DNA of 64,000 nt from positions 11,650,896-11,714,895 of the forward strand of contig JAHRHZ010000079.1 of the NCBI GenBank assembly GCA_024137785.1. Reading direction: 5' to 3'. The notes below the pieces were generated by a model. The model worked only from the letters and a program-made list of their open reading frames with translations. It was not told where the DNA came from and did not search any database. This document shows positions 2,701 through 63,462 of the stretch, piece after piece. The position numbers and the translations under genes were made by a program. Position 1 is the first letter of the stretch, and the number at the start of each line of letters is the position of its first letter. The DNA comes from Ginglymostoma cirratum (Eukaryota).

Positions 2701-4777
2701 ACAGTGATCTCTTGTAATTGCTCCCAAGCTGCAGACATTTTGAGTTTCTCTCTTTGAAGGATACAGAAAAACAGGGGTTAAAAAGTTAGCTTCAAACTCT
2801 GCTGGAGTGTCCTAGTGGCACCAAACGTTCTTGAGGGTGCCAGCCTGGGTTCAAGTTCTGGCGTGCCATGAATGCCACAGTTAAAGAGCTGACTTTTTGT
2901 TGGAGGTAAAGACTCTCTTTTGCTTTGAGTGCTAGAAGGCAGTATTAGCAAGCAGGGGGACAAAAGGGAAAGAGCACAGCAAAATTATTATCTCTCAGTC
3001 AAATTCTGATTGTGTCCAAGTATTTCATCTTCAACTGAATTCTCACTAACTCAACTGAATTACTGTCTAGTTTGTCTCATGCTTCTTCCATTTTCAAATA
3101 ATGTCACTTCAAATATGTCTGCTTTATTGGACTCAGCGTTTAATTTTATGTTCAACATATTTCCCCAATTCTAAAAATTTAGCCCTTTTTTTAGCAAATA
3201 ATTCAGGGATGAATCTCCCATCTCCATAAAAGTCTTAGCAAGAGTCAAATCCATTTTGATTTAACAATGTGCAGGAAACCTGGTGTTTTTCTTTTATTTT
3301 CTTTTTGCAATTATCACATTGTATCAAATTTAGATACAAGAGTTTGTGGTAAACAAGCAGTTATCCAAAGATATGTGACTTTGAAGAACTGCATTGTTTT
3401 ATAATGTTCCACTATCCTTTCATTGACCTGTTTAAAAAACTTCCAGGTCGCCCACAATACTTCAATTTGAAGTCCAAAAAAGTATTAAATATGAAGCCAC
3501 TGGAACTCTTGGGACATTAAAGGCACTCAATAAATGCACATTTTTGTTATTGACTTGGGCTGTCTGATGCTATTGATGCCAGACAGCTTCCCATACCTTG
3601 ATCAAGTGTGTCATTTTCATATTTTAAGTCTGGACAACATATTCCTGAATGCAAATTGATCACATCTTAGGTAAGCTCAGTTCATTCTTAACTGACATCT
3701 ATTCCGGCATTTCTTGGCTGATTCATAGGATAACACCATGAAATACTGAGGATACTGAGGACACTGATGACACTTCTATACCTGTCCAGCAAACTCAACA
3801 CAACCTAGAGATTGAGCCGAAGATTTGCCAATTTTATGTACCACATTAGATGCCTCTTAAAACTCCATCCAGCAGAACATTCTGTTTAGTTCTGCTCACT
3901 AATATTCTTCATTTTCAGAAGTGTCCTCTTTATTTAAAGTAATTCTGTTCCACCCTTCTCTGCAAGCAGTTTAAATAGTTGTTTCCCATTTCAAGTTTGT
4001 TATCAAATTAAGCATTATAATCGGTGATTAATGAGGTTTAAGATGGTAAAAGCCTTTAGCAGTTTAAGGAAGTAATTTGCTGTCTGCCTTCTGTGTGATA
4101 GAGAGAGATTGGATAAGAAACCATGCCACATGCTGTAACTGGATAGTGTTGAGATTTCTTTGCAGTTTTGATTTATATAAAGAAGATGTGAGTGGGATGA
4201 ACAAACTTTTGTGTTTATTTCTTACTGGAAATACAGGATTACAAGGGATTTGAACGGGATAGGAAGTATAGAGTCAATTGAGAGCGCAACTTTCATTTAA
4301 ATTGGACCAGAAAGGCAATTTGATATTATCTGAATAGGGATTAAATTTGATAAGTGCTTCAAGATTGTATTGTGCAGTGTGAAAGATATGAGTGCCCTCT
4401 TAAAATGCTTAAGTTATGATGTTCTCACTTTCTGGTGAACCTAGCTATTTGGTAGGAAAAATAATCAACCAGGTTTGCTCCCGCCAAAGCCCAATAAGTA
4501 AACCTGTACAGAAAGCATACACTGTTGTGCGTTAGACCTCAAGAGGATTGGACAGATCCTGCTTGTGCTTCAGATCCAGCCAGATTTGAAGGAAAATGGT
4601 AAATTGTGGAAATGAAGGATGTACTTTTTTTTGCAGTTATCATTTCTAGGCTGCCTTGATTAGCCTAATTAACAGCTGAGTCAGAGAGGCAATAAAATCT
4701 AAAGCCTGATTGCTGTCTGACTTGGCTGAAGAGACCTCACCGAGGGTGCTATCATTGACTGATGGTGCAATCTCTGA

Positions 4778-5096
4778 TTTACTGCAGAAATTCACCAAGG
4801 CTCCTAAGTCAAACATCTTTCAAACCCAGAAACACTGCCATCTAGAAACACAACTGCAGCAGATACATGGGAACATCACTGCCTGCAAGTTCCCCTCCAA
4901 GCCTGAATTGGAAATATGTCACTGTTCCTTCAGTGCCACTGGGTCAAAATCTTGGAATTCCTCCCTCATGGCACTGTGGATAACAATGGTTCTAAAAGGC
5001 AACTCACTACCACCTTCTCATGGGCAACCAGGGATGGGCAATGAATGCTGCCCCAGCCAGTGTCATCCACATCCCAAGAATCAATTAAAATAAAAA
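4778..5096 (+). mobile_element. CR1/L2-group LINE 3' end whose tail is shared with the local SINE
   Basis: Ends ...gggatgggcaatgaatgctgccccagccag...catcccaagaat plus A-rich tail; homologous to 38330-38620 and to the SINE tail at 7068-7125. Confidence 0.75.
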
Positions 5097-6400: not shown

Positions 6401-6638
6401 AAAATAAAAACCAAAAGAACTGCGGATGCTGTAAATCAGGAACAAAAACAAAGTTGCTGGAAAAGCTCAGCAGGTCTGGCAAAATCTGTGAAGGAAAAAA
6501 CAGAGTTAACATTTCAGGTCTGGTGACCCATGCCCAGAACCTTCTGAGGAAGGGTCACCGGACCCCAAACGTTAACTGTGTTTTTTCTTTCACAGATGCT
6601 GCCAGACCTGTTGAGCTTTTCCAGCAACTTTGTTTTTG
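6401..6638. mobile_element. Fold-back non-autonomous PLE derivative with 14-bp TSD
   Basis: Arms 6441-6539 and 6542-6640 are inverted (87/99 identical); flanking direct repeat ttatagtgctagac at 6387-6400 and 6639-6652; arm sequence matches the PLE terminus at 24090-24190. Confidence 0.85.
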
Positions 6639-6786
6639 TTATAGTGCTAGACGTTTGTATGCCCACATAACATTTTGAGAGAAGAGCGTTATTTTCTGAG
6701 GCACCTTTATTTGGTAAGCAGGAAAGGTTTTCATTGCTATTCCAATTGCTGCAAATGGAAGGGCAATGCTGCTTTAAAACAAGGAA

Positions 6787-11300: not shown

Positions 11301-11959
11301 CCTGCAACACAAATAAAAGTAAGTTTTTTTCCCAAGCCAGTGGCTGCATGACTAGAACTTTATAGATTGTTGACTACAGGCTGAATGATACAGGCAATCT
11401 CTGGGTTGCAAGCAGGTTCCATTCCTGAGTCTATTCACAGATTGACTTACACACGTGCAACTTACACGTTGCAAGACAATATAAAGCAGCCATTTGTATA
11501 TACAGGAAACATTCATGTTTCACATGTCTAAAATTACACTCTTGTATGGTTTCATGATTGTAAGTCAGGCATTTATAAATTGGAAACCATCTGTATCTCT
11601 CTGTCTGCACAAGCAACTACACTTTATGGAGCTGGTTTCTTACTTTCATACTCATCAACTCTGCTGAGTGTCATTCACAAAGGGGAATTAGGTCTCCGCT
11701 TCTGGCCAGTCAGCACGCAGCAGGGTCGGGATCTCAATAGGTGGGGCCAGGAGCAGGAACCAAACAAACAGCTAACCAATCAGTTTTTCGGATGGGAACC
11801 AAGGTGAGAAGTTGGGCGAGGGGTGGGGGAGAGGTTTATGCCTCTGTCTCACCAGCAGCAATGACTGAATCAAAAGTGAAAGTTAAAACTCTTAACATAG
11901 GCTGGTACTGCAATTACCAGTCCTGGGCATCCCCTATGCCCAGTCTTTGGTAACCTCAA

Positions 11960-14111: not shown

Positions 14112-15149
14112 AACATTCATAACAAGTGGTTATCTATGATATGACAAAGCTGATGCTTATTCCTGGGGTCCCTGATTTATGAATGTTACAGGGGTCCAAT
14201 TTTAAAGACCCAGCATATGAACGTTTCCTGTACTGACAAATGACTCCTTTACATTGACCTGCATTGTGTTCTGACATGCACACAAATCGACTTAAGAACG
14301 GACTCCAGAGTGGAATGTATCCACAACCCAGGGACTGCATGTATTTGCAAAGTCAATTTTTCTTGTATTTGGACATCTGAGACTCCCGTAAGCTCAGATG
14401 ATCCAGTCCAGGCCCCTTATCTAGTACATTATCAATGTCGAATGGAGACTTGGTGCCCTTCTCCTCTATCAGTCAGTATACTTGGCAACACTCATTTCGT
14501 GAAACTGACCAACTGGATGTAGTTTTTAGTCTATGTTATCAATACCTGCATTCTATAGGTTTCCCAATGTCCATTTCCAATCAGGTGGAGAGACAGGTTT
14601 TGTTTAATGTTGAGCTAGTTTGGGGAAAAAAAAAGGATGATGTAAATCTACTACCACTTCAAACATAACCTAAATAAGACAATTGAGACATTTTAATACC
14701 TAATTAAGTACAATGCCGGAACATTATTGTGGCCTTTGAAATAGTTGAGTGGGTGAAGTGTCCATTTGTGGTTCTCTATGTTTGTATAATTCTACTCTAG
14801 TCATAAATTTGAGAGACGGATTTCAAGCACTAAACTCCCTCTGCTTAAGTGAATGATGAAATGGCATTCTTTGTAATAAATCCTGCTGCAGCCAATACTG
14901 GAGATTCCACTACACTGCTACCACTTCTGGGATGCACTGCTTATACAGTTTAAGCAAGTTTGATGTGTGAGGATCCCCCTTGTTAACACCTCTACAAAGA
15001 AACACATCTGTGTTTGAATCAGTTTGAAAATGTCAGCCTGCCCTATTTAAGTCACAGATAGGCTTTAGCTTACTGAGAAATTCCAAGAGAAGTGAAATTG
15101 ATTCATCCTTGATGTCTCATCCTTGGGATTACAGCTTATACGGTTGGTA

Positions 15150-32089: not shown

Positions 32090-32930
32090 AGTTTATGTAA
32101 TATAAATACGCCTACAACGCTGTTCAGCAGTTCTAAAATTAAGCCATTGACAGGAAAGGGAAAAGGTAATTGATATATTTCCAGGTGCAGAAAGCTGCAT
32201 GGTCTGGAGTGGAATTGCAGGGATATTTCCACAGGCCCTGCTGGCTTGTCTCTCTATGGGGTAAAAGTCATGGGTTTGCAAGGTGCTTTTGAAGGGCTTT
32301 GTTGAGTTGCTGCAGTGCATTTACACAGTGAATTTAACTACTCATAGGATACGCTACTGTACGGGCCTCTGGATAATAGACAAGAGTGTTAGCCTTCTTG
32401 AACTGAATGGCCAAAGTCAACCTCGATGATTGGTAGGGGTTAATATTGAAAGTCATACAGCTAGTGCCAATCAAATAGTCTACTTTGTCCTGGATGGTGT
32501 TGAGCGTCATTAGTGCAACATTCACTCGGCCAATTGGTAAGTACTCCATTGCACTCTTGACTTCTGCCTTATAGCTGGTGGACAGGGTCTGAGCAGTTTG
32601 GAGTAAGTTAATCATTGCAGTTTCCAGCTTCTCACTTGCTCTGGTCGCTATGATATTTATATGACTGGCCTAGTTCAGTTTTTGGTTAATGGTATTCCCC
32701 AGGATGTTAATGGTGGGGGAAATTAGAGATGGTAATGCATTTGAATACCGAGGCATAATTAGTGGATTCTCTCCTGTTGACATTTTGTTTACCTGAATGT
32801 TACTTGCCACTTATCAAACCAAGACTGAATGTTGTGGAGTTCTTGCTGCAGATAGGCACAGAGTTCTTTAGAATCTGAGTAGTTAGTTGATGCAGAACAT
32901 TGTGCAATCATTAATTAATGTCTGATCTTG
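32090..32930 (-). mobile_element. CR1/L2-group LINE fragment split by a ~95-bp foreign insert
   Basis: ORF 32334-32615 contains LSTSYKAEVKSAMEY...NTIQDK...LIGT; homologous to 36890-37060 and 38065-38620. Confidence 0.75.
32336..32418 (+). repeat. Diverged direct copy of 33985-34067, inserted in a LINE
   Basis: Ungapped hand alignment, 61/83 identical, offset 1649 bp. Confidence 0.9.
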
Positions 32931-33770: not shown

Positions 33771-33984
33771 AGTTTATAGGACTGTTTAGGTAGGATTCGT
33801 ACTGTAGTCAGTTAATCTTAGAGTCATTGTTTTTTTTGCCAGATTTTCCTCTTCTGTTCTGTTTCTTCCAGTAATAAAGTTATTTGGGAGTGAGCAGTTC
33901 TTTCAAACATGTAGTCCAGTGGGCATATGTGGGTAGGTTTGCCACTCTTGTAAAGCAGCACTAAAAACCACAACATTCTATTTG

Positions 33985-34067
33985 AACTACATAAAGGACT
34001 TGCTTCTGCAGGCACCTCAGAATAACAGTGAAGAGTATTTCCTTTCTTGAACTGAATGAACAAAGTC
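33985..34067 (+). repeat. Partner (presumed template) of 32336-32418
   Basis: Same alignment; shared 15-mer ttcttgaactgaatg. Confidence 0.9.
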
Positions 34068-34796: not shown

Positions 34797-36712
34797 AAGT
34801 GGAAGAGGATCAGCACCTGCCTTAAGACATGGTAGACCCCCTGGCCAGCCCCCAGACTGAAGCTGTAGCCTTGCCGTTATTAGCAACACACTCTAATCAT
34901 CTGACTGAACCAGCCATCACTGTAAGGTGTTCTTGGTGGAAGAATTTATAAGTCTGTTAGTTGGGAACCTGTGTACAATGTTGTCGCAAATAATGCAAAA
35001 GCAAAAATTTACCCCGAACTAACCACACAATCTTCCCTTTTATCTACCAGACGGTAGCTTCATAGATTTCTGGTATGTAAAAAGCAATTGCTTTTTGTGT
35101 ATTGACAAGTTCTTTATCATTCTCGCATATGGTTTCCCCAGAGTGTTTCTTCATGACACCATACAAGAATATGTGAAAAAATATATAGTTAGATGTCTCC
35201 TGTGCTATATAGTACATTAAACATCCAAATAGGTAGATCTACTTAATATACTCAGATCATCACATGTGTCTATTTATAATGTATACACGGTCCAGAGTAA
35301 TAGATGAAACCACAGAGAACAATTTGTCTTTCCGTTTCAATTTTTTCATTCTATCTGTTCCTTGCCTAGTCACTGGAACAGTACAGAAACTAAATACTGT
35401 CTTTCTCTGTCCTTATCTTCCCAGTCACTGACACTTTGGAAATGCTCGAGTAGGTTAGGAAATGACTGCAATCTAACTCAACGTTGCTTCCATCCTTCTG
35501 AATCTTATTACATCAGTACAATGGTCATTGAATAATGAATTAATAATCAATTGCCCTTGTAACTGAAGAAATTGCAGTGGCTGATTAATGATTTGGCTGA
35601 TGTTTCAAATGAAACATCTTTTACAGCCATGATTCTTTTTTTAGAATTGGAAACATTTTGGAGGTGATGTCATTCACATCATGAAAAGTCAGCGTCTGAA
35701 TTTGGCAAATGGTATTGAAATCTTTAATGGCATGGCAAGAAGCCTAGGCCAAAAGCCAATTAATATGAAATCTGTCTATGGTAGACCGTCCAAGCCTTTG
35801 CATTTTGTTTTGATATAGTTCCCATTTCCCTTTTGCTTTCAAGTGAAAAAGTGCTCATGATAGAATTAAGATGAATTGGAGGTAATTCTTTGGATCATAG
35901 GGTAATAACTTCCCCTGAAGTTCCCAATTTCCCATGAGTGTATGATGTAGGAAACAAGCAGAGGGCGTGTGCATTCTCAGGTGAAAGGTTAAAAGTTGAA
36001 GAGCGAATGATGAGCATCGTGCCAACAAATAACTGAATAATTGAATTAAGACAGTCCCAAGAACTGGCTGGAAGCCCATTTCCTTTATGAAGAAAGTGAG
36101 ACATGGCATGAGGAAGATTTTAAAAGTAACTTATCAAAATGGAAGAACATGAAAGAAAATGACAACCACAATGAATTGGGACATTGACCAGAACTGGTAT
36201 CACTAGAAATAAATACGTGTCAATGTGAAAGGTGGCCTGCTTTTAAATATTTGGCCTGGATTTTGGCTCAGGTAGCAGAGTCAGAAAATTTCCTGCAGGT
36301 GGGGAATAGAAGTGCAACCCAGTTGATGGGATCTTTGCTCCTAAGAGAGCAGAATTGGGATGGAGTTAGGTCTGCTGTCCTTGGATACTGAGCGCCAAGG
36401 CTGGAAATTTAAAAGAAAATAAAAACAAAAATTGCAGGGAAAGACAAGAAACACCTGGCAGAAAGCTTTCCCCAATGCTGATATTAATTTGAATACTAGC
36501 TTTAAACTTAATAAACCATAAAGTTTCCAACCTTGTGCCAGATCATCTTGCTATAAGTGGTACTGCTTAAGGCTGAAGTGGAAAATCCATTTGTAATCTT
36601 AATTTCTGTCAAGTGAACTGTTCCAAGATGTCCCTATCTGATGGAAGCATCAATAAAGGCCAAAAACATAGGGTTTTTTTTGGAAGAGTCCAAACTGTTA
36701 GCATTGAGGTGT

Positions 36713-36797: not shown

Positions 36798-36889
36798 TGT
36801 TAGCATTGAGGTGTTCAGCTCCACTTGCAAATCCTCTATGAATGAAGCAGGCCCTGTGAGTATAAAGTAAAACAGGGGGCAAGTTAGGA

Positions 36890-38620
36890 TTGGGCCCATA
36901 GATGGCAAGTAACATTCACTCCACATAAATGCCTGACAGTAACCATCTCCAATAATGGAAAGTATAACCACCTCTTGACATTTAATGGCATTATCATCAC
37001 CAAAACCTACCACCATTAATATCCAAAGCTGTAATCATTGACTAGGAGCTTAAATGGACTTTCTTTCTTTTCAGATACCATGGCCTCAGAAGGTGGTTGT
37101 GATAATTGACTTTGTTATGACTAGATGAGGAGAGGGTATCTGTTCCCTCTTGTTAAACCCCCTCTTGACTGGATGAAACAAATATATTTCTGTTAGTTCA
37201 CAGCTATCACACTTCACTTAAAGCTCAATTAACCAGTTTAAAAAGCAGGGACCAAGTCCAAGCTTTCATTGAGTGAGAAAATGAAAAACTGAATTATCTA
37301 TTAAAACTGAAAAAAAATCATAAAATGTAACATCAAATGCAGAAAATAAGTATAAAAATGAATAGGGATGGGGGAGTAAGTATGTAACAAACAGGCAAAT
37401 AAAAAGTTTAAAGTCCTTCAGTTGAAAGAATGAAACCCAAGTCCACAGCTGTTCAGCTGTTCTCTTATTTCTTCAGCAGTGGCAACATTTGCAGAATTCT
37501 GGAGTTCCTGGTGAATGGTCATTAACCCAAGTTGCTTTTTCATTGGACACATCTTAAGGGAGGTAATAAAGCATAGAGAGAAAGTTCAAACCTTACAGGT
37601 TCTGTGGTTATGAATCAATTCCTCTTTCTCTGCTTTGCCAAGAAAGCTACTGAAATATGGTTTATTTATATATTCCCAAGTCTAACTTCATTGTCCTTTC
37701 AAGCTGGATACTCAGCAGGCAATCTTCTATCTCCCTATTCTTGATCTTGCCGCAGGAGTATGAATTAAACAGGAGATGCAAATTTCTTATTGTTGTCCTA
37801 TTTGTCTGGTTTCACAGTCTTTGGATGAAATGGTCATTTCAGTGCAGTCGGTTCAATGTATCCCACATGGGATCCATTCACTTGTCTCACTCTGTGGTCA
37901 GGTAACCATAGCAGCCAGTTTGGGTCAGTAATTTTCTTTCTAAAAACCCTTTAGTTTGTAAAGGTCTCAGATGCTAAAACCTAATGATGGGAGTTGAATA
38001 TTAATAGTCCATGTTACCATTACATAAAAGCTTTCATGAGCTTGATCCATGATTATCGTTGGTATTTACTTGGAAATGACACATTGGTACTGTGAATGCA
38101 AGACCAGGTAAGAGGCAGCATATTCTGTGCCAAGTAGCTCAGCACCTGGCTCCCTTTCTATTGTTTGCAGGACGTAAGTCTGGAGTCTTACGGAATGTTG
38201 TCCTCTTGCCTGAATGGGTGCAGCTCGAACAATACTTACCGAAATTTGACACCATCCAGAAGAAAGTGGCTTATTAGATTGGCACCTGTCCAGCACTGGT
38301 AGACTGTAACTACAGGACATATCTTCTAAAGATGCTCTGAAGCAAGTTGTTAAGCTGCTTCTCGACCACATCACAAACTGGTGACACCTTCCACCTTGAA
38401 CAGCAATGCAGTTAGCGCATGGCAATGCCACCACCTTCACGTTCCCCTCCAAGATGTACACATCCTGATTTGGAAATTCATTGTTACTGTGTCAAAATTC
38501 TGAAACACCTCTTTACAGTGGAGTGTCTTCACCACATGGACTGTCCTGTCTAAAGAGGTATCTCCCCTCTAACTTTTGAGGGCAATGAATGCTGGTGTTG
38601 TCAGCGATGCAGGCATCCCC
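36890..38620 (+). mobile_element. CR1/L2-group LINE (36890-37060 plus 38065-38620) split by a ~1-kb LTR-like insertion (~37092-38040)
   Basis: WQVTFTPHKC in the first part; KFDTIQKK and the shared 3' tail in the second; the insert begins tgttatga. Confidence 0.65.
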
Positions 38621-38658
38621 TAAGATCATAAGATACAGGATCAGAATTAGGCCGTTTG

Positions 38659-55345: not shown

Positions 55346-56822
55346 TTTGGAACCAAAAGTTTATCCATGAGGAACAGGATTCAAGGACAGGAGGTAGAGT
55401 TAACATTAGGGGTATGTAGGATTTTTCAGTCACTGGGATCCAATTGAATCAGTTTATTTCTTAATGAATTACAAAAATGCACAAGTTTCAATACTTTGAT
55501 TTCTGTCTTTAAAATACACATTGAAATTGAAATTCTTTTATTGGAAGACATACCTCCTGAGAGCATAATATGAGTTTGCAGATGAAATTGAGAAAATATC
55601 TAATTTCATGATGCATATGTTTTAGGAATATAGCTTTCAACAGGGAATATTGAATTTTTAAACATATTATAATGGAATCACCTGGTGTGGAAGGTTGCTA
55701 AACAGACTTAATAATTGCAATTTAGGGGATGATCTGTGTTTTTGAAATAAGATTTGAGTCAGAAGTGGGAAAATATGAAAGAATTAATGACCCATTTCTC
55801 AGAATCTTGATGGTGATTAAATGTGTGCATCTTTTCAAGGGATTTAAATTATTTGTGTGATTCCCCAGATCAAAAAAAATTGCAAAGCAACTGGTGAAGG
55901 AGGAAGGTCTGAAAGTATATGTACTTTCAAGTCAAAGGACAGTTTTGCAAGGTGAAATTAGTTTAAAATCACCACCTGGGCATCCCAAAATTTGCCATGG
56001 TGGTAGTTTGCTGAGATCAATACTTTTGTTTTGGGTTTTTTCATGTGATTTTTTTCCCCCCCAGAAATCAGGCAGGTTCCATCTAAAGCTGGAACATCTT
56101 GGAAATGGGCAGAGTACAAAATGTGCCAGGGGCTACAGACTAGAAGCCAGAAGACTTTGAAGCCCATACTTAAGCTGGATTGTCCACAATCATGAGGAGC
56201 ACAAGAGGAGTTAGAGGGTTGCCTGGCCAAATGTTAGTGGAAGGACCACAAGATATCTCATTCCTCTGAAAATATCAGGAATATTGAAGTGAATTCCTGA
56301 GACCTGTGGCATGCCCTGGTTTAGTCCCTGAAGAATTAAAGGAACTCTCAAGTTCCTGTAATGAGTTGGGGAACTGTTGGATGAAAATATAAGTACAATG
56401 TGAGAGCAACTCATGAGGTTTTTGGGCTTAAAGAATAAGGATGAAATAATAGCTCTTGCTTTCTTTAATTTTTACTCAATAAAAGCTGTTGTATAAAACA
56501 TGAAACATTTATCTTTCAGTTAACATCTGGGAATCCATTTTTCTTTCTACAATGTAATGGTGATCCCTTGAGATCATTACACCAATGAATATGTGCAAAG
56601 TGACTTCCATTTTTCCTAATTCTGCTTACTTTCAAATTTTTTCAAACATATCTTTGCAAGATCAAAAACATGATAACATGCCACATAGAATGACTGAATC
56701 GTAAAGCAGTCATTGACCCCCATATCATCAGATAATAAAGGAGATTTGTGTCAAACAGATTTCCCAAACACTGCACATTTTCTCTGAGGCAAAACCAAAG
56801 CCTTACTGCCTATGCCATTACA

Positions 56823-56898
56823 GAGGATTCACTAGACTGTAGTTACCTTCAGTTAAACATTTTTAAATTTCTGCAGTGATTTCAGAAATGCTGTCATC
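56823..56898 (+). repeat. Partner (presumed template) of the inverted copy at 57408-57483
   Basis: Ungapped hand alignment with the reverse complement, 64/76 identical. Confidence 0.92.
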
Positions 56899-57169
56899 TC
56901 TCTTCCACTCCGTCAGCATTCTATCCTGACTCCTCTTCACAGCTGATGCATGCTCTGACAATACATTATTAATCTGAATATTTTTGATTCAGGTTGTTCA
57001 GTGTACACTTTGGAAAGTAAAGACCCTTCTCTGATATCATTCCTCACCCAAAGGTAACTCTTGAGACTAAATGCCTCTTTCAAATAAATCTTTGCACTGA
57101 GAAATAAGAATTGTTTGAAAATAGTAAGTGTTATCAGTTGTGTTGTCCTTACAGTCATTTTTTGACATG

Positions 57170-57840
57170 TTGGTAGTGGTGAGCTGTCATCTTGAAAACA
57201 AACTGCAGCCCATGCTGTGCATGAACAATGCTGTTAGAAAGGGACTTGCTAGATCTGTTTGAAATCTATCCCATTCAGCACGACCACACAACACAATGGA
57301 GGGTTTCCTTGATATGAAGATGGGATTTTTGTCTCAACCAGAACTGTGCAGTGGCCCCTTTTATTGATAATGTCATGGAAAGATACATCTACAACAGAAA
57401 GATGGGTGATGAAAACATTTCTGAAATCACAGCAGAAATTTAAATCTGTTTAACTGAAGATAACTATAGTGAAGCGATTCGTCCAGGAGGAGGTAAAGTA
57501 CATATTTCCCTTTGTTGTTCCCTCCCATCTATTGTGGACCCAGTCTACCAATCTTTAGATCTCAGTCACTAGTGGTGCTACCAAGATATTTTTGGTATAG
57601 ACATTCACTGAAATCATCCAGAGTACATTCTGTGCCCTTTCCACTCTCATTGCATCCTCCAGATAGAGGAGAACTCCTTCATCAGTTGAGAGGAGAGGTG
57701 AGTGGCAGTAGATGGTACTATGCAAGAGGTATTTTTTGCCCATATTTGACCTGATTTTATGAGACCTCATGAGGTCCAGAGTCAATATTGAAATCTCTCA
57801 GGTCAACTCACTGCCCACAATATGCCACTGTACCACCCTG
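57170..57840 (-). mobile_element. CR1/L2-group LINE, deleted copy (3' tail joined to endonuclease region), split by a 76-bp insert
   Basis: 57172-57247 is tail-like; ORF 57555 shows RVERAQNVLW (cf. AQNVLWVGDFN). Confidence 0.65.
57408..57483 (-). repeat. Diverged inverted copy of 56823-56898, inserted in a LINE
   Basis: Ungapped, 64/76 identical; shared blocks cttcagttaaaca, tttaaatttctgc, gtgatttcagaaatg. Confidence 0.92.
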
Positions 57841-59122: not shown

Positions 59123-60649
59123 AAGAAATGCATGTTCACTTAGTCAGGGGGACATTTACAAATACATACGGGCTTCGACTTTTTTTTAAGTGAGAAAGTT
59201 CCAATACATGCCCTATCCATGATCAATACAGAATACGCACCAGGGACTGGGGCTTTATGTAAAATTAAACACTTGAGATTTGAGGTATTGGACACATAAC
59301 TCATGGATGGCATGAGTGGTTGTTTTAACTGAGTGAAAATAAACACAGACAAACGCACACACACACGTACATATAACTTTTGGCCTGCCTTTTCAAACGT
59401 GGAGCAAACCTATAGGCATGAATGTGGTTAGAGCTCAAAAGCACAACACTGACTGTAATCATGTAGTGTGATCCTGCGTTATCAGAGGAGGGGCTTGAAA
59501 AGAATAAGCATTTCTGACATGTACTCTATATGTAGCTTCTGCAAAATAGTATAAGTGACAAGGAAGCCAGAACATGCCAATTAACAATATAAATCTAAAA
59601 TCAAACAAACAAGGATCACGCTGTAATATTTAGTATAAGTTTATGGTGTGAACATTAAGCTATATATTTTTGTTTCCTTTTTAAGTACTTCTAAACATGT
59701 AGTAAATTGCTATTGTTCACTGTTTCTGTTTCAGCACTTAATTTTAGCTTTCATCTGGACATTTTTGCGTTATGTGTTCAAGGCTGATAAGCTACAATCA
59801 GCACATAGCCCAGGGCGCATATTGCAGAACGTTTAAACCCACTAAAATATGATTAAAATTTATACTTTGCCTATTGTTTAAATTTTAATACCTTGCTTCA
59901 GCTCTCAGAATGACCTTCATGCGTAGCCTTTACTAAAATAAGATGTCACATGGGTGTTTAGTTTTAAATTATCCTGGTCTAGTAAAAGTTATCACAGTGT
60001 AAAACAAGAATAAAAGATCAGAATAGAACTTAGAAAGAGATGGAAAAATGATGGGCCTTGCACCATAAATAAAGTATTATACATATTTTCCTAATACTGC
60101 CTTTATATCTTAGAAGTTGTTGCTAACTGAGTATCTTTGGTGTAAAATTTGCCATGGCACAGCAACAAATAGCACTTTGCTCTAAAATAAATCTTGCTCA
60201 TTTGATATCGGCAATATGGGATAGACCAATGGCCTGAGGAGTGACAGATGGAAGTTAATTTACATAAATGTAGGGTACTGCATTTTGGAAAGACAAATCA
60301 GGGCAGGACTTACAAATTGATGGCAAGGGCCTTGGGAGTGTTTGTGAACAAAGAGACCTGGAAATGCACGTTCAGAATTTCTTGAAAGTGGAGTCACAGG
60401 TAGATAGGATGGTGAAGAAGGCATTAGGTAATGCTTTCCTTTATTGGGCAGTGCATTGAGTATAGGAGCTGAGAAGGCATATTGTGGCTGTACAGGACAT
60501 TGGTTAGGCCACTTTTGGAATACTGTGTGTAATTCTCGTCTCCCTGTTATAGGAAGGATGTTGTGAAATTTGGAAAGGTTCAGAAAAGATTACAATGATG
60601 TTGCCAGGGTTGGAGGGTTTGAGCTATATGGACAGGCTAAATAGGCTGG

Positions 60650-61532
60650 ACAGCATCAGAGGAGCAGGAAAGCTAATGTTTTGGGTCTGGACCCTTTTTC
60701 AGAAAAGGGGGAGGAGAAGGAGGTTCTGAAGTAAATAGAGAGAGGGGGAGGTGGTGATAGAAGATGGATAGTAGAGCAGAAAGGTGGAGAAAAGGCAGAC
60801 AGGTCAAGGAGACGGGGATGAAGCTAGTAAAGGTGAGTGTAGGTAGGTAGTGGTGGGGATTGGTCAGTGAGGTGGGAGGAGCGGATAGGTGGGAGAGAAG
60901 ACGGACTGGTCAAGGAGGCGGGGATGAGAGGGAGATCTGGTCTTGGGATGAGTCGGGGGTGGGGAGATTTTGAAGCTCGTAAAGTCCATATTGAGACCAT
61001 TGGGTTGTAGGGTTCCAAGGCGGAATATGAGGCGCTGTTCCTCCAGCTTCCAGGTGGCATCGTTGTGACACTGGAGGAGGCCCAGGAGTGGGAGGGGGAG
61101 TTGAAGTGGCTCGCGACTGGGAGGTGTAGTCGTTTGTCGCGAACTGAGCATAGGTTCTCCACAAAGCAGTCTCCAAGCCTCTCGTCCCCACCTCCTTGTC
61201 CTGTCCATCTTCTCTTCCACCTATCCACTCTCCCCACCTCACTGACCAACCCCCAACCCAACTTCCTATCTACACTCACCTTACTGGCTTCATCCCCTCC
61301 TCCTTGATGTGTCTGTCTTCTCTCCACCTATCTGCTCCTCTATCCACCTTCTATCACCACCTCCTTCTCTCTCTATTTATTTCAGAGCCCCCTTCCCCTC
61401 CCCCATTTCTGAAGAAGGGTCCAGACCTGAAACGTCAGCTTTCCTGCTCCTCTGATGCTGCCTGGCCTGCTGTGTCCATCCAGCTCCACGCCTTGTTATC
61501 TCAGACTCCAGCACTGACAGTTCCTACTATCT
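60650..61532 (-). mobile_element. 5'-truncated Penelope-like element with GIY-YIG C-terminus and inverted terminal repeat; 13-bp TSD
   Basis: Minus ORFs give RLGDCFVENLCSV...PVASHFNSPSHS and LGLLQCHNDATWKLEEQRLIFRLGTLQPNGLNMDF; ~61180-61480 is an inverted copy of ~60650-60965; ctaaataggctgg at 60637-60649 and 61533-61545. Confidence 0.92.
61405..61440 (+). ncRNA. Minimal hammerhead ribozyme motif, intact core and weak stem I
   Basis: CTGAAGA (61409-61415), stem II gggt/acct, GAAAC-GTC (61429-61436). Confidence 0.6.
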
Positions 61533-62639: not shown

Positions 62640-63220
62640 GAGCAGGGAGTCAGGCAGGCCAATCTTCTCTCACCCATGCAGGCTTATGCTAAGTGAGAGT
62701 AGACCATGAGGATGATGTAAGTAGAGTTAACCGAGAGATGTGGCTGCGTCACAGGAAGATATAGCATGTGAAATAAAACAACACACTCATAGTCAGAACA
62801 AAGAAATTGCTCAAGACTGTGGAAGGCCTGGTCAAAAGAAAGAGAGAATATTTTTGGAGTGGAACATAAATGAGGCAAGGATCAAAGTTATGGCCCAAAA
62901 TGGCAATGGAAAAATCAACATTAGAAGTACTAAGATAGAGGCAGTAAACAAAAGCATGTATTTGGTTTCAACGATAAATACAAAAGTTGCATCCAAAAAT
63001 GAAATCCAGGTTAGAAGTAACAAGAAGCATGACCAGTGACTTAAGATCCTTAAAGAGAAACCATCTCATACAATTACTAGTGTGCAATGTGGCACTCAAT
63101 GGATGCAAGAGTTGGATTCTAAAGAAACAGGATGAGAGGAGGGTACCAGCTTTTGAAATATGAGCCTGGCAAAGGATGGTCAGGATCCGTTGGATGGGCA
63201 GAAACAGAAATAAGTGGAAA
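62640..63220 (+). mobile_element. RTE-clade LINE RT relic, second subfamily
   Basis: GVRQANLLSP; ORF 62740 NINEARIKVM...IEAVNKSMYLVSTI...EIQVR; GCKSWILKKQDERRVPAFEI. Confidence 0.8.
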
Positions 63221-63225
63221 CGCAC

Positions 63226-63462
63226 AAAAACAGAAATTGCTGGAGAAACTCAATAGGTCTGGCAGCATCTGTGGAGAGAAAACAGAGTTAATGTTTCAAG
63301 TCAAATGACCATTGTTCGGAACCCTTATGACAAAGGGTCACTGGATCAAAAAGTTAACTCTGCTTTCTCTCCACAGATGCTGCCAGATCTGCTCAGTTTC
63401 CTGAGCAATTTCTGCTTTTGTATGTTTCAGATCACCAGCATCTGCAGTTCTTCGTTTTGTTA
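63226..63462. mobile_element. Fold-back non-autonomous PLE derivative, older than 6401-6638
   Basis: Arms ~63226-63320 and ~63325-63420 are inverted copies of the PLE terminus. Confidence 0.8.

Follow-up and report, generated by a model that had tools for sequence, protein, structure and literature searches.

We analysed a 64-kb stretch of Ginglymostoma cirratum DNA (the window) and found that a 76-nt segment lying inside a decayed LINE is a full-length, inverted copy of a segment about 510 bp away, to which it is 84% identical. This arrangement is very probably the product of a repair-mediated duplication into a LINE that was already dead, followed by neutral divergence. Under this model, a germline double-strand break would have opened a CR1/L2-type LINE, and one 3' end, probably the one on the 57408 side, where slight microhomology is seen, would have primed on oppositely oriented DNA about 0.5 kb away. 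After 76 nt had been copied, the end would have been released and joined to the other break end with no LINE sequence visibly lost, by a pathway that may have been SDSA-like or a polymerase-theta-type templated insertion. Donor and copy would then have drifted neutrally to a difference of 16%.

A 76-nt inverted pair far above chance

Read as its reverse complement, 57408-57483 agrees with 56823-56898 in 64 of 76 bases and needs no gap, as an earlier note on this DNA had reported. The 12 differences comprise four transitions, four A<->T changes, two C<->G changes and two other transversions; our recount agrees with the 4 transitions and 8 transversions, 6 of complement type (A<->T or C<->G), given in that note. 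Divergence is 16% (JC 0.18). The match is far above chance: blastn aligned the two units with an E value of 1.8e-16, and their ungapped score of 46 compares with best scores within 3 kb of 15-19.5 in all eight 64-kb windows simulated with an order-3 Markov model. An exhaustive ungapped scan of every diagonal within 4 kb returned 15 segments, in which the 76-nt pair scored 46 and a pair at 32333/33982 scored 28.5.

We infer that 56822..56898 (plus strand) is the donor, since the other copy is the one that splits the LINE. This putative template is non-coding and AT-rich, has no repeat match elsewhere in the window and shows no target-site duplication. The acceptor, placed at 57409..57484 (minus strand) by an excision profile and by its junction sequences, carries the 12 differences over 57408-57483 plus a terminal base, 57484, that is unmatched in the donor. 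Half of the differences (6/12) fall within 17 nt of its right end, and the window offers no second source for this divergent 18-nt end (the best match is 13/18).

The window is repeat-rich, and each unit could in principle be a separate copy of some short dispersed repeat, or both could derive from a third source elsewhere. We consider this improbable. An nhmmer search started from the pair returned just these two copies in the 64 kb, the next match having E 0.68, which also counts against the multi-copy family that the earlier note had named as a threat to its reading. Moreover, homology stops at the LINE breakpoints, the junction sequences contain neither a poly(A/T) tail nor a target-site duplication, and the donor and acceptor lie within 1.7 kb of each other both here and in the companion pair described below. 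An assembly or processing artefact, with which an ungapped, substitution-only difference would be compatible, is less probable still: misassembly would be expected to produce near-identical copies, and the LINE resumes cleanly on either side of the insert in a window that contains no N.

Excision of the insert restores the host LINE

The earlier note had proposed that the insert splits a LINE, and this was borne out when removal of 57409-57484 restored an endonuclease-region alignment across the site. A frameshift-aware profile built from three full-length EN+RT proteins (P0007, P0011 and P0012; Pfam PF14529 plus PF00078) scored 62.7 across the site with these 76 nt excised, and 40.7 with them in place; none of 29 control tiles exceeded 38.7. 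Among excision lengths of 64-91 nt, the score peaked at 76 (62.7), with 55.7 as the next best value. Allowing a free long gap in the profile alignment put the edge at 57483, but the aligner then split the gap. Under stricter settings the upstream piece alone aligned (37.6, with controls reaching 27.7). The scores above were obtained with relaxed penalties and with P0017 left out of the profile because it diverges ahead of the junction; the controls were rerun with identical settings. The insert is best placed at 57409-57484, or shifted by one base through 1-bp microhomology, which corrects the earlier placement at 57408-57483. Alignment of the LINE to its consensus had been suggested as the way to fix the breakpoints; the edges could be fixed, with distant protein relatives rather than a DNA consensus. 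A second copy of the EN region is absent from the window, so there is no DNA-level empty site there; the empty site made in silico by removing the 76 nt fits the LINE family profile.

The upstream piece of the host (57485..57635, minus strand) is a decayed APE-endonuclease region that aligns to the profile up to the junction, and the downstream piece (57284..57408, minus strand) is colinear with it once the 76 nt are removed. At profile resolution, no LINE codon is lost at this junction. The host carries two stops and four frameshifts in about 100 aligned codons, and this visible decay implies enough time for the pair to have diverged. The candidate priming end, 57401..57408 (plus strand), shares with the donor flank 56898-56905 one exact base pair of microhomology and an imperfect match of 5/8, while the opposite junction has one unmatched base. 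Microhomology at the junctions is minimal, and age blurs junction signs.

The family was identified through the piece adjoining the companion insert, which retrieved three proteins in a protein search. Among the relatives of one of these are proteins named for Cetorhinus maximus (80%) and for Chiloscyllium plagiosum (71%, in a short alignment), one Branchiostoma protein, and full-length proteins with PF14529 and PF00078. The names of these relatives, together with their endonuclease and RT domains, suggest a probable CR1/L2-type LINE in what is probably a cartilaginous-fish genome. With the decayed pieces from the window, word-based protein searches gave no match, Pfam recognised none of the LINE pieces and an Atlas search gave only leads below 0.9; the EN region went unnoticed in a plain tblastn with the distant full-length proteins and was detected only with the frameshift-aware profile. 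This LINE family has left more decayed fragments at 4777-5090, 36891-37007 and 38053-38640.

Transposon ends, RNA and coding origins

The inverted orientation and the 'ca' at both outer edges would also suit the terminal inverted repeats (TIRs) of one 661-bp DNA transposon, and a stem that folds in silico would suit a selected RNA structure or a pair of paralogous ncRNAs. We give these readings the lowest probability of all, a very slight one. Removing the whole 661 nt scores 40.7-42.3, compared with 62.7 for the 76-nt excision, and does not restore the LINE; a TIR pair, which the earlier note had set out as a refutation of its own proposal, is ruled out because the LINE continues inside the 661-nt interval. 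That note had also suggested that the pair, if transcribed, could form a dsRNA stem of about 76 bp. An interrupted stem of 64-68 bp does fold in silico, but nothing shows transcription. The stem mismatches are without G-U bias (G-U in 1/12 on the plus strand and 3/12 on the minus strand), and the single units fold no better than shuffled sequences (z -0.8 to 1.5). Rfam matched nothing in the whole window at gathering score and gave three chance matches only in 56600-57700 at E values up to 5, and ARAGORN found no tRNA in the window.

Coding origin was considered and rejected: although seven of the 12 differences share a codon position, the frame in question contains a stop in each copy, and codon periodicity is absent from the companion pair. 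None of the 246 window ORFs of 62 aa or more matches Pfam, although short exons or a large intron may have escaped this search. The window has a CpG observed/expected ratio of 0.24 and contains no Pfam-recognisable host gene. No function is indicated for the pair.

A companion pair in a similar LINE

The pair at 32.3/34.0 kb consists of an 86-nt direct copy (32333..32418, plus strand) in the C-terminal part of the RT of another, similar decayed LINE and a donor 1649 bp away (33982..34067, plus strand), which match at 63/86 positions without gaps. Their differences are 10 transitions, 11 complement-type changes and 2 other transversions. LINE sequence of the family was found by tblastn on either side of the insert. 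The host here is 49% identical to P0001, whose own closest relatives are 77-91% identical to it, and loosely gapped alignments of same-family copies with this host give about 66-68%. By nhmmer the two pairs are unrelated in sequence, as had been claimed, and a family shared by both is thereby ruled out. Our results support two parts of the earlier proposal: that the LINE received a copy made from a local template, and that the companion pair records the same kind of event. The companion insert lengthens the LINE reading frame, giving a 111-aa stop-free stretch (32337-32669, minus strand), and LINE codons have apparently been lost at or near its junction, unlike the clean junction at 57.4 kb.

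Most of the differences probably reflect ordinary ageing

The same repair event could have made many of the differences at or soon after copying, for example by translesion synthesis over damaged single-stranded DNA. The earlier note had argued for such mutagenic copying from an excess of complement-type changes, which it gave as 17 of 20 transversions across both pairs; the correct figure is 17/21, because the companion contributes 2 other transversions beside its 11 of complement type. Abasic sites lead to A>T changes under the A-rule, and the translesion variant would produce these together with C>G changes through REV1, worsening away from the priming end. C>G change near meiotic breaks is described as a REV1 signature in the available text of one study (PMC7615360).

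Taken alone, the 76-nt pair does not support mutagenic copying. We compared it with 54 repeat-versus-repeat alignments in the window (14 of them non-overlapping), which are GC-richer than the pairs and partly ex-coding; their mismatches are about 60% transitions, 20% complement-type and 19% other. An unadjusted Fisher test on the spectrum gives P=0.025, but after adjustment for base composition the 6/12 complement-type changes give P=0.06-0.17, and their share among transversions P=0.30-0.53. The pair is therefore at best a marginal replicate, if the signature is defined on the first pair. Three ordinary local non-coding inverted repeats, picked as controls after the ungapped-scan results had been seen, contain 54 transitions, 18 complement-type and 8 other changes; the complement-type share among their transversions (18/26) resembles that in the two pairs (17/21; Fisher P 0.50). 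One control is likewise gap-free, with 12 differences over 99 columns, and the absence of gaps has P=0.30 for the 76-nt pair alone and P 0.03 for both pairs.

Pooling the two pairs is what favours mutation at copying. Complement-type changes make up 17/35 differences, against about 23-27% expected (P 0.0008-0.008, post hoc, n=2; Fisher 0.008 against the local inverted controls), and the share of transitions is low (14/35). No background block of 12 mismatches contained at least 6 complement-type changes (0/92), and no block of 23 contained at least 11 (0/34). The differences cluster at the end opposite the microhomology (P 0.04 and 0.025 for clustering at one end, post hoc), and there are no gaps. 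As the earlier note had observed, the insert has two CpGs and its partner none; across both pairs the acceptors have four and the donors none, with about 0.7 expected per 76 bp. These spectrum tests were all devised after the fact for two events, and the window had been singled out for exactly this pattern.

Known error rates argue against mutation at copying. For Pol theta, the available text of a biochemical report (PMC2441791) gives 2.4e-3 substitutions per base and a still higher frequency of single-base indels. The substitution rate predicts 0.18 substitutions in 76 nt, and the 12 present are therefore beyond copy error at known rates; mutation at copying would need about 65 times the Pol theta rate. 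Human-specific repair duplications average 0.89% divergence, several of them at 0%, in the portion of the human survey available (PMC2671141). Furthermore, the sample is two events and the signature was picked after looking. In the accessible text of a shark pedigree study, four de novo mutations are listed, all transitions, too few to serve as a null (PMC10587355). We therefore regard copy-time mutation as unlikely. Under repair followed by neutral divergence, the differences in the 76-nt pair would have arisen after copying, and they look mostly like ordinary ageing; the low transition share and pooled complement-type excess remain as an unexplained residue.

Other repeats in the window

Several further repeats were seen. 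A gapped inverted repeat of about 155 bp (11388-11560 / 14170-14343, 2.95 kb apart) has 105 matches, 34 transitions, 12 complement-type and 4 other changes, and its outer ends read TA then CA.GCA.TC, a motif by which it resembles the long terminal repeats of an ancient DNA transposon of the Tigger/pogo type. The segment at 11464/14217, considered as a third case, was rejected as part of this longer gapped repeat. Related head-to-head palindromic repeats of about 200 bp at 6441-6640 and 63217-63428, with arms 87% and 77% identical, are like MITE or paired SINE copies. At 36696-36712 and 36798-36814, a perfect 17-bp direct repeat surrounds a repeat copy of about 85 bp and has the look of a target-site duplication left by a more recent insertion. 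A dispersed repeat is present in two oppositely oriented copies, 60643-60931 and 61178-61468, which are 85% identical and separated by about 250 bp; their spectrum is ordinary and transition-rich (30 transitions, 7 complement-type, 2 other).

Density and significance

Two repair-type duplications occur in these 64 kb; the surveyed vertebrates have 0.08-0.65 per Mb of TE DNA in the available part of the published survey (PMC2671141). This may reflect a high density of repair duplications in this genome, and window selection and detection depth may explain the apparent density. That proximal repair duplications are far denser in this lineage is possible, if doubtful; that, in addition, copying brings polarised, substitution-only A<->T and C<->G hypermutation is much less likely, and the mutator half is the weaker of the two. 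Such a mutator, acting in germline templated repair, would if real differ from every polymerase measured so far. Because a duplication that interrupts a TE shows by itself which copy is donor and which is acceptor, a genome-wide collection would be a direct test of whether germline repair synthesis is hypermutagenic; it would also show how often a slow-evolving lineage repairs breaks by templated insertion, which one pair cannot. Searches by title and abstract opening, with most subscription papers outside their scope, returned no shark survey of such duplications and no paper on their substitution spectra.

Comparison with known systems

In the template/variable repeat of a diversity-generating retroelement (DGR), an ungapped, diverged copy lies near its template and the substitutions are adenine-specific. 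The 76-nt pair resembles this arrangement in being an ungapped, diverged copy near its template and beside RT-related sequence. Unlike in a DGR, the differences hit all four bases and the RT belongs to the dead LINE that the copy interrupts; we rejected a DGR on the mismatch table.

Doublets are reportedly mostly same-strand. They are short local duplications, ascribed to imperfect break repair (Thomas et al. 2004, as summarised in the available text of PMC2671141). The pair is likewise short and local, but doublet surveys, as summarised there, took identical or near-identical pairs, and the present pair is 16% diverged. Inverted templated insertions of MMBIR type occur as germline variants, in a search that, as its available text describes it, was limited to templates within 100 bp (PMC8421209). 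Like these and Pol theta templated insertions, the pair is an inverted copy of a nearby template; unlike in the MMBIR-type set, its units are about 510 bp apart.

The closest likeness is to the repair-mediated duplications of Pace et al. (2009, PMC2671141), in which a TE is interrupted by a copy of DNA less than 5 kb away, without poly(A). As reported in the available parts of that paper, the donor lay within 5 kb in 824 of 1,136 human cases, ten vertebrates had 6-834 proximal cases per genome with divergence that tracks age, and junctions showed microhomology, filler or deletion. One of the cases discussed there is inverted, and the Table S1 header has no orientation column. In Table S1, inserts of 66-107 bp that diverge from their donors by 14-16.5% occur in L2 and Alu hosts; one of them, of 107 bp in an L2 host, has its donor 563 bp away at 14% divergence. 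Divergence of 14-16% is thus seen among published human duplications and is attributed there to age. These parts of the paper include no shark and report no substitution spectra.

Judged by the definition used there, the TE pieces have the same orientation, lie at least 50 bp apart and have consensus positions within 30 bp on distant protein relatives; the donor is more than 50 bp and less than 5 kb away and matches the insert over its full length at 84%, above the required 80% coverage and 50% identity; the junctions show no poly(A/T), and neither they nor the lack of other copies in the window indicate a nested TE or retrocopy; and a single other copy exists within the 64-kb window. The pair differs from the cases in the available text in its length (76 versus a mean of 162 bp), its donor distance (about 0.5 versus a peak of 1.2 kb) and its exact microhomology (1 bp versus 2-9 nt in their Table 1). 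It shares with them a TE interrupted by an at least 50-bp copy of a single donor less than 5 kb away, the lack of poly(A), an inverted precedent and, in Table S1, divergence up to about 16%. The pair is one more fossil repair scar of a known class, in a lineage that Pace et al. did not survey.
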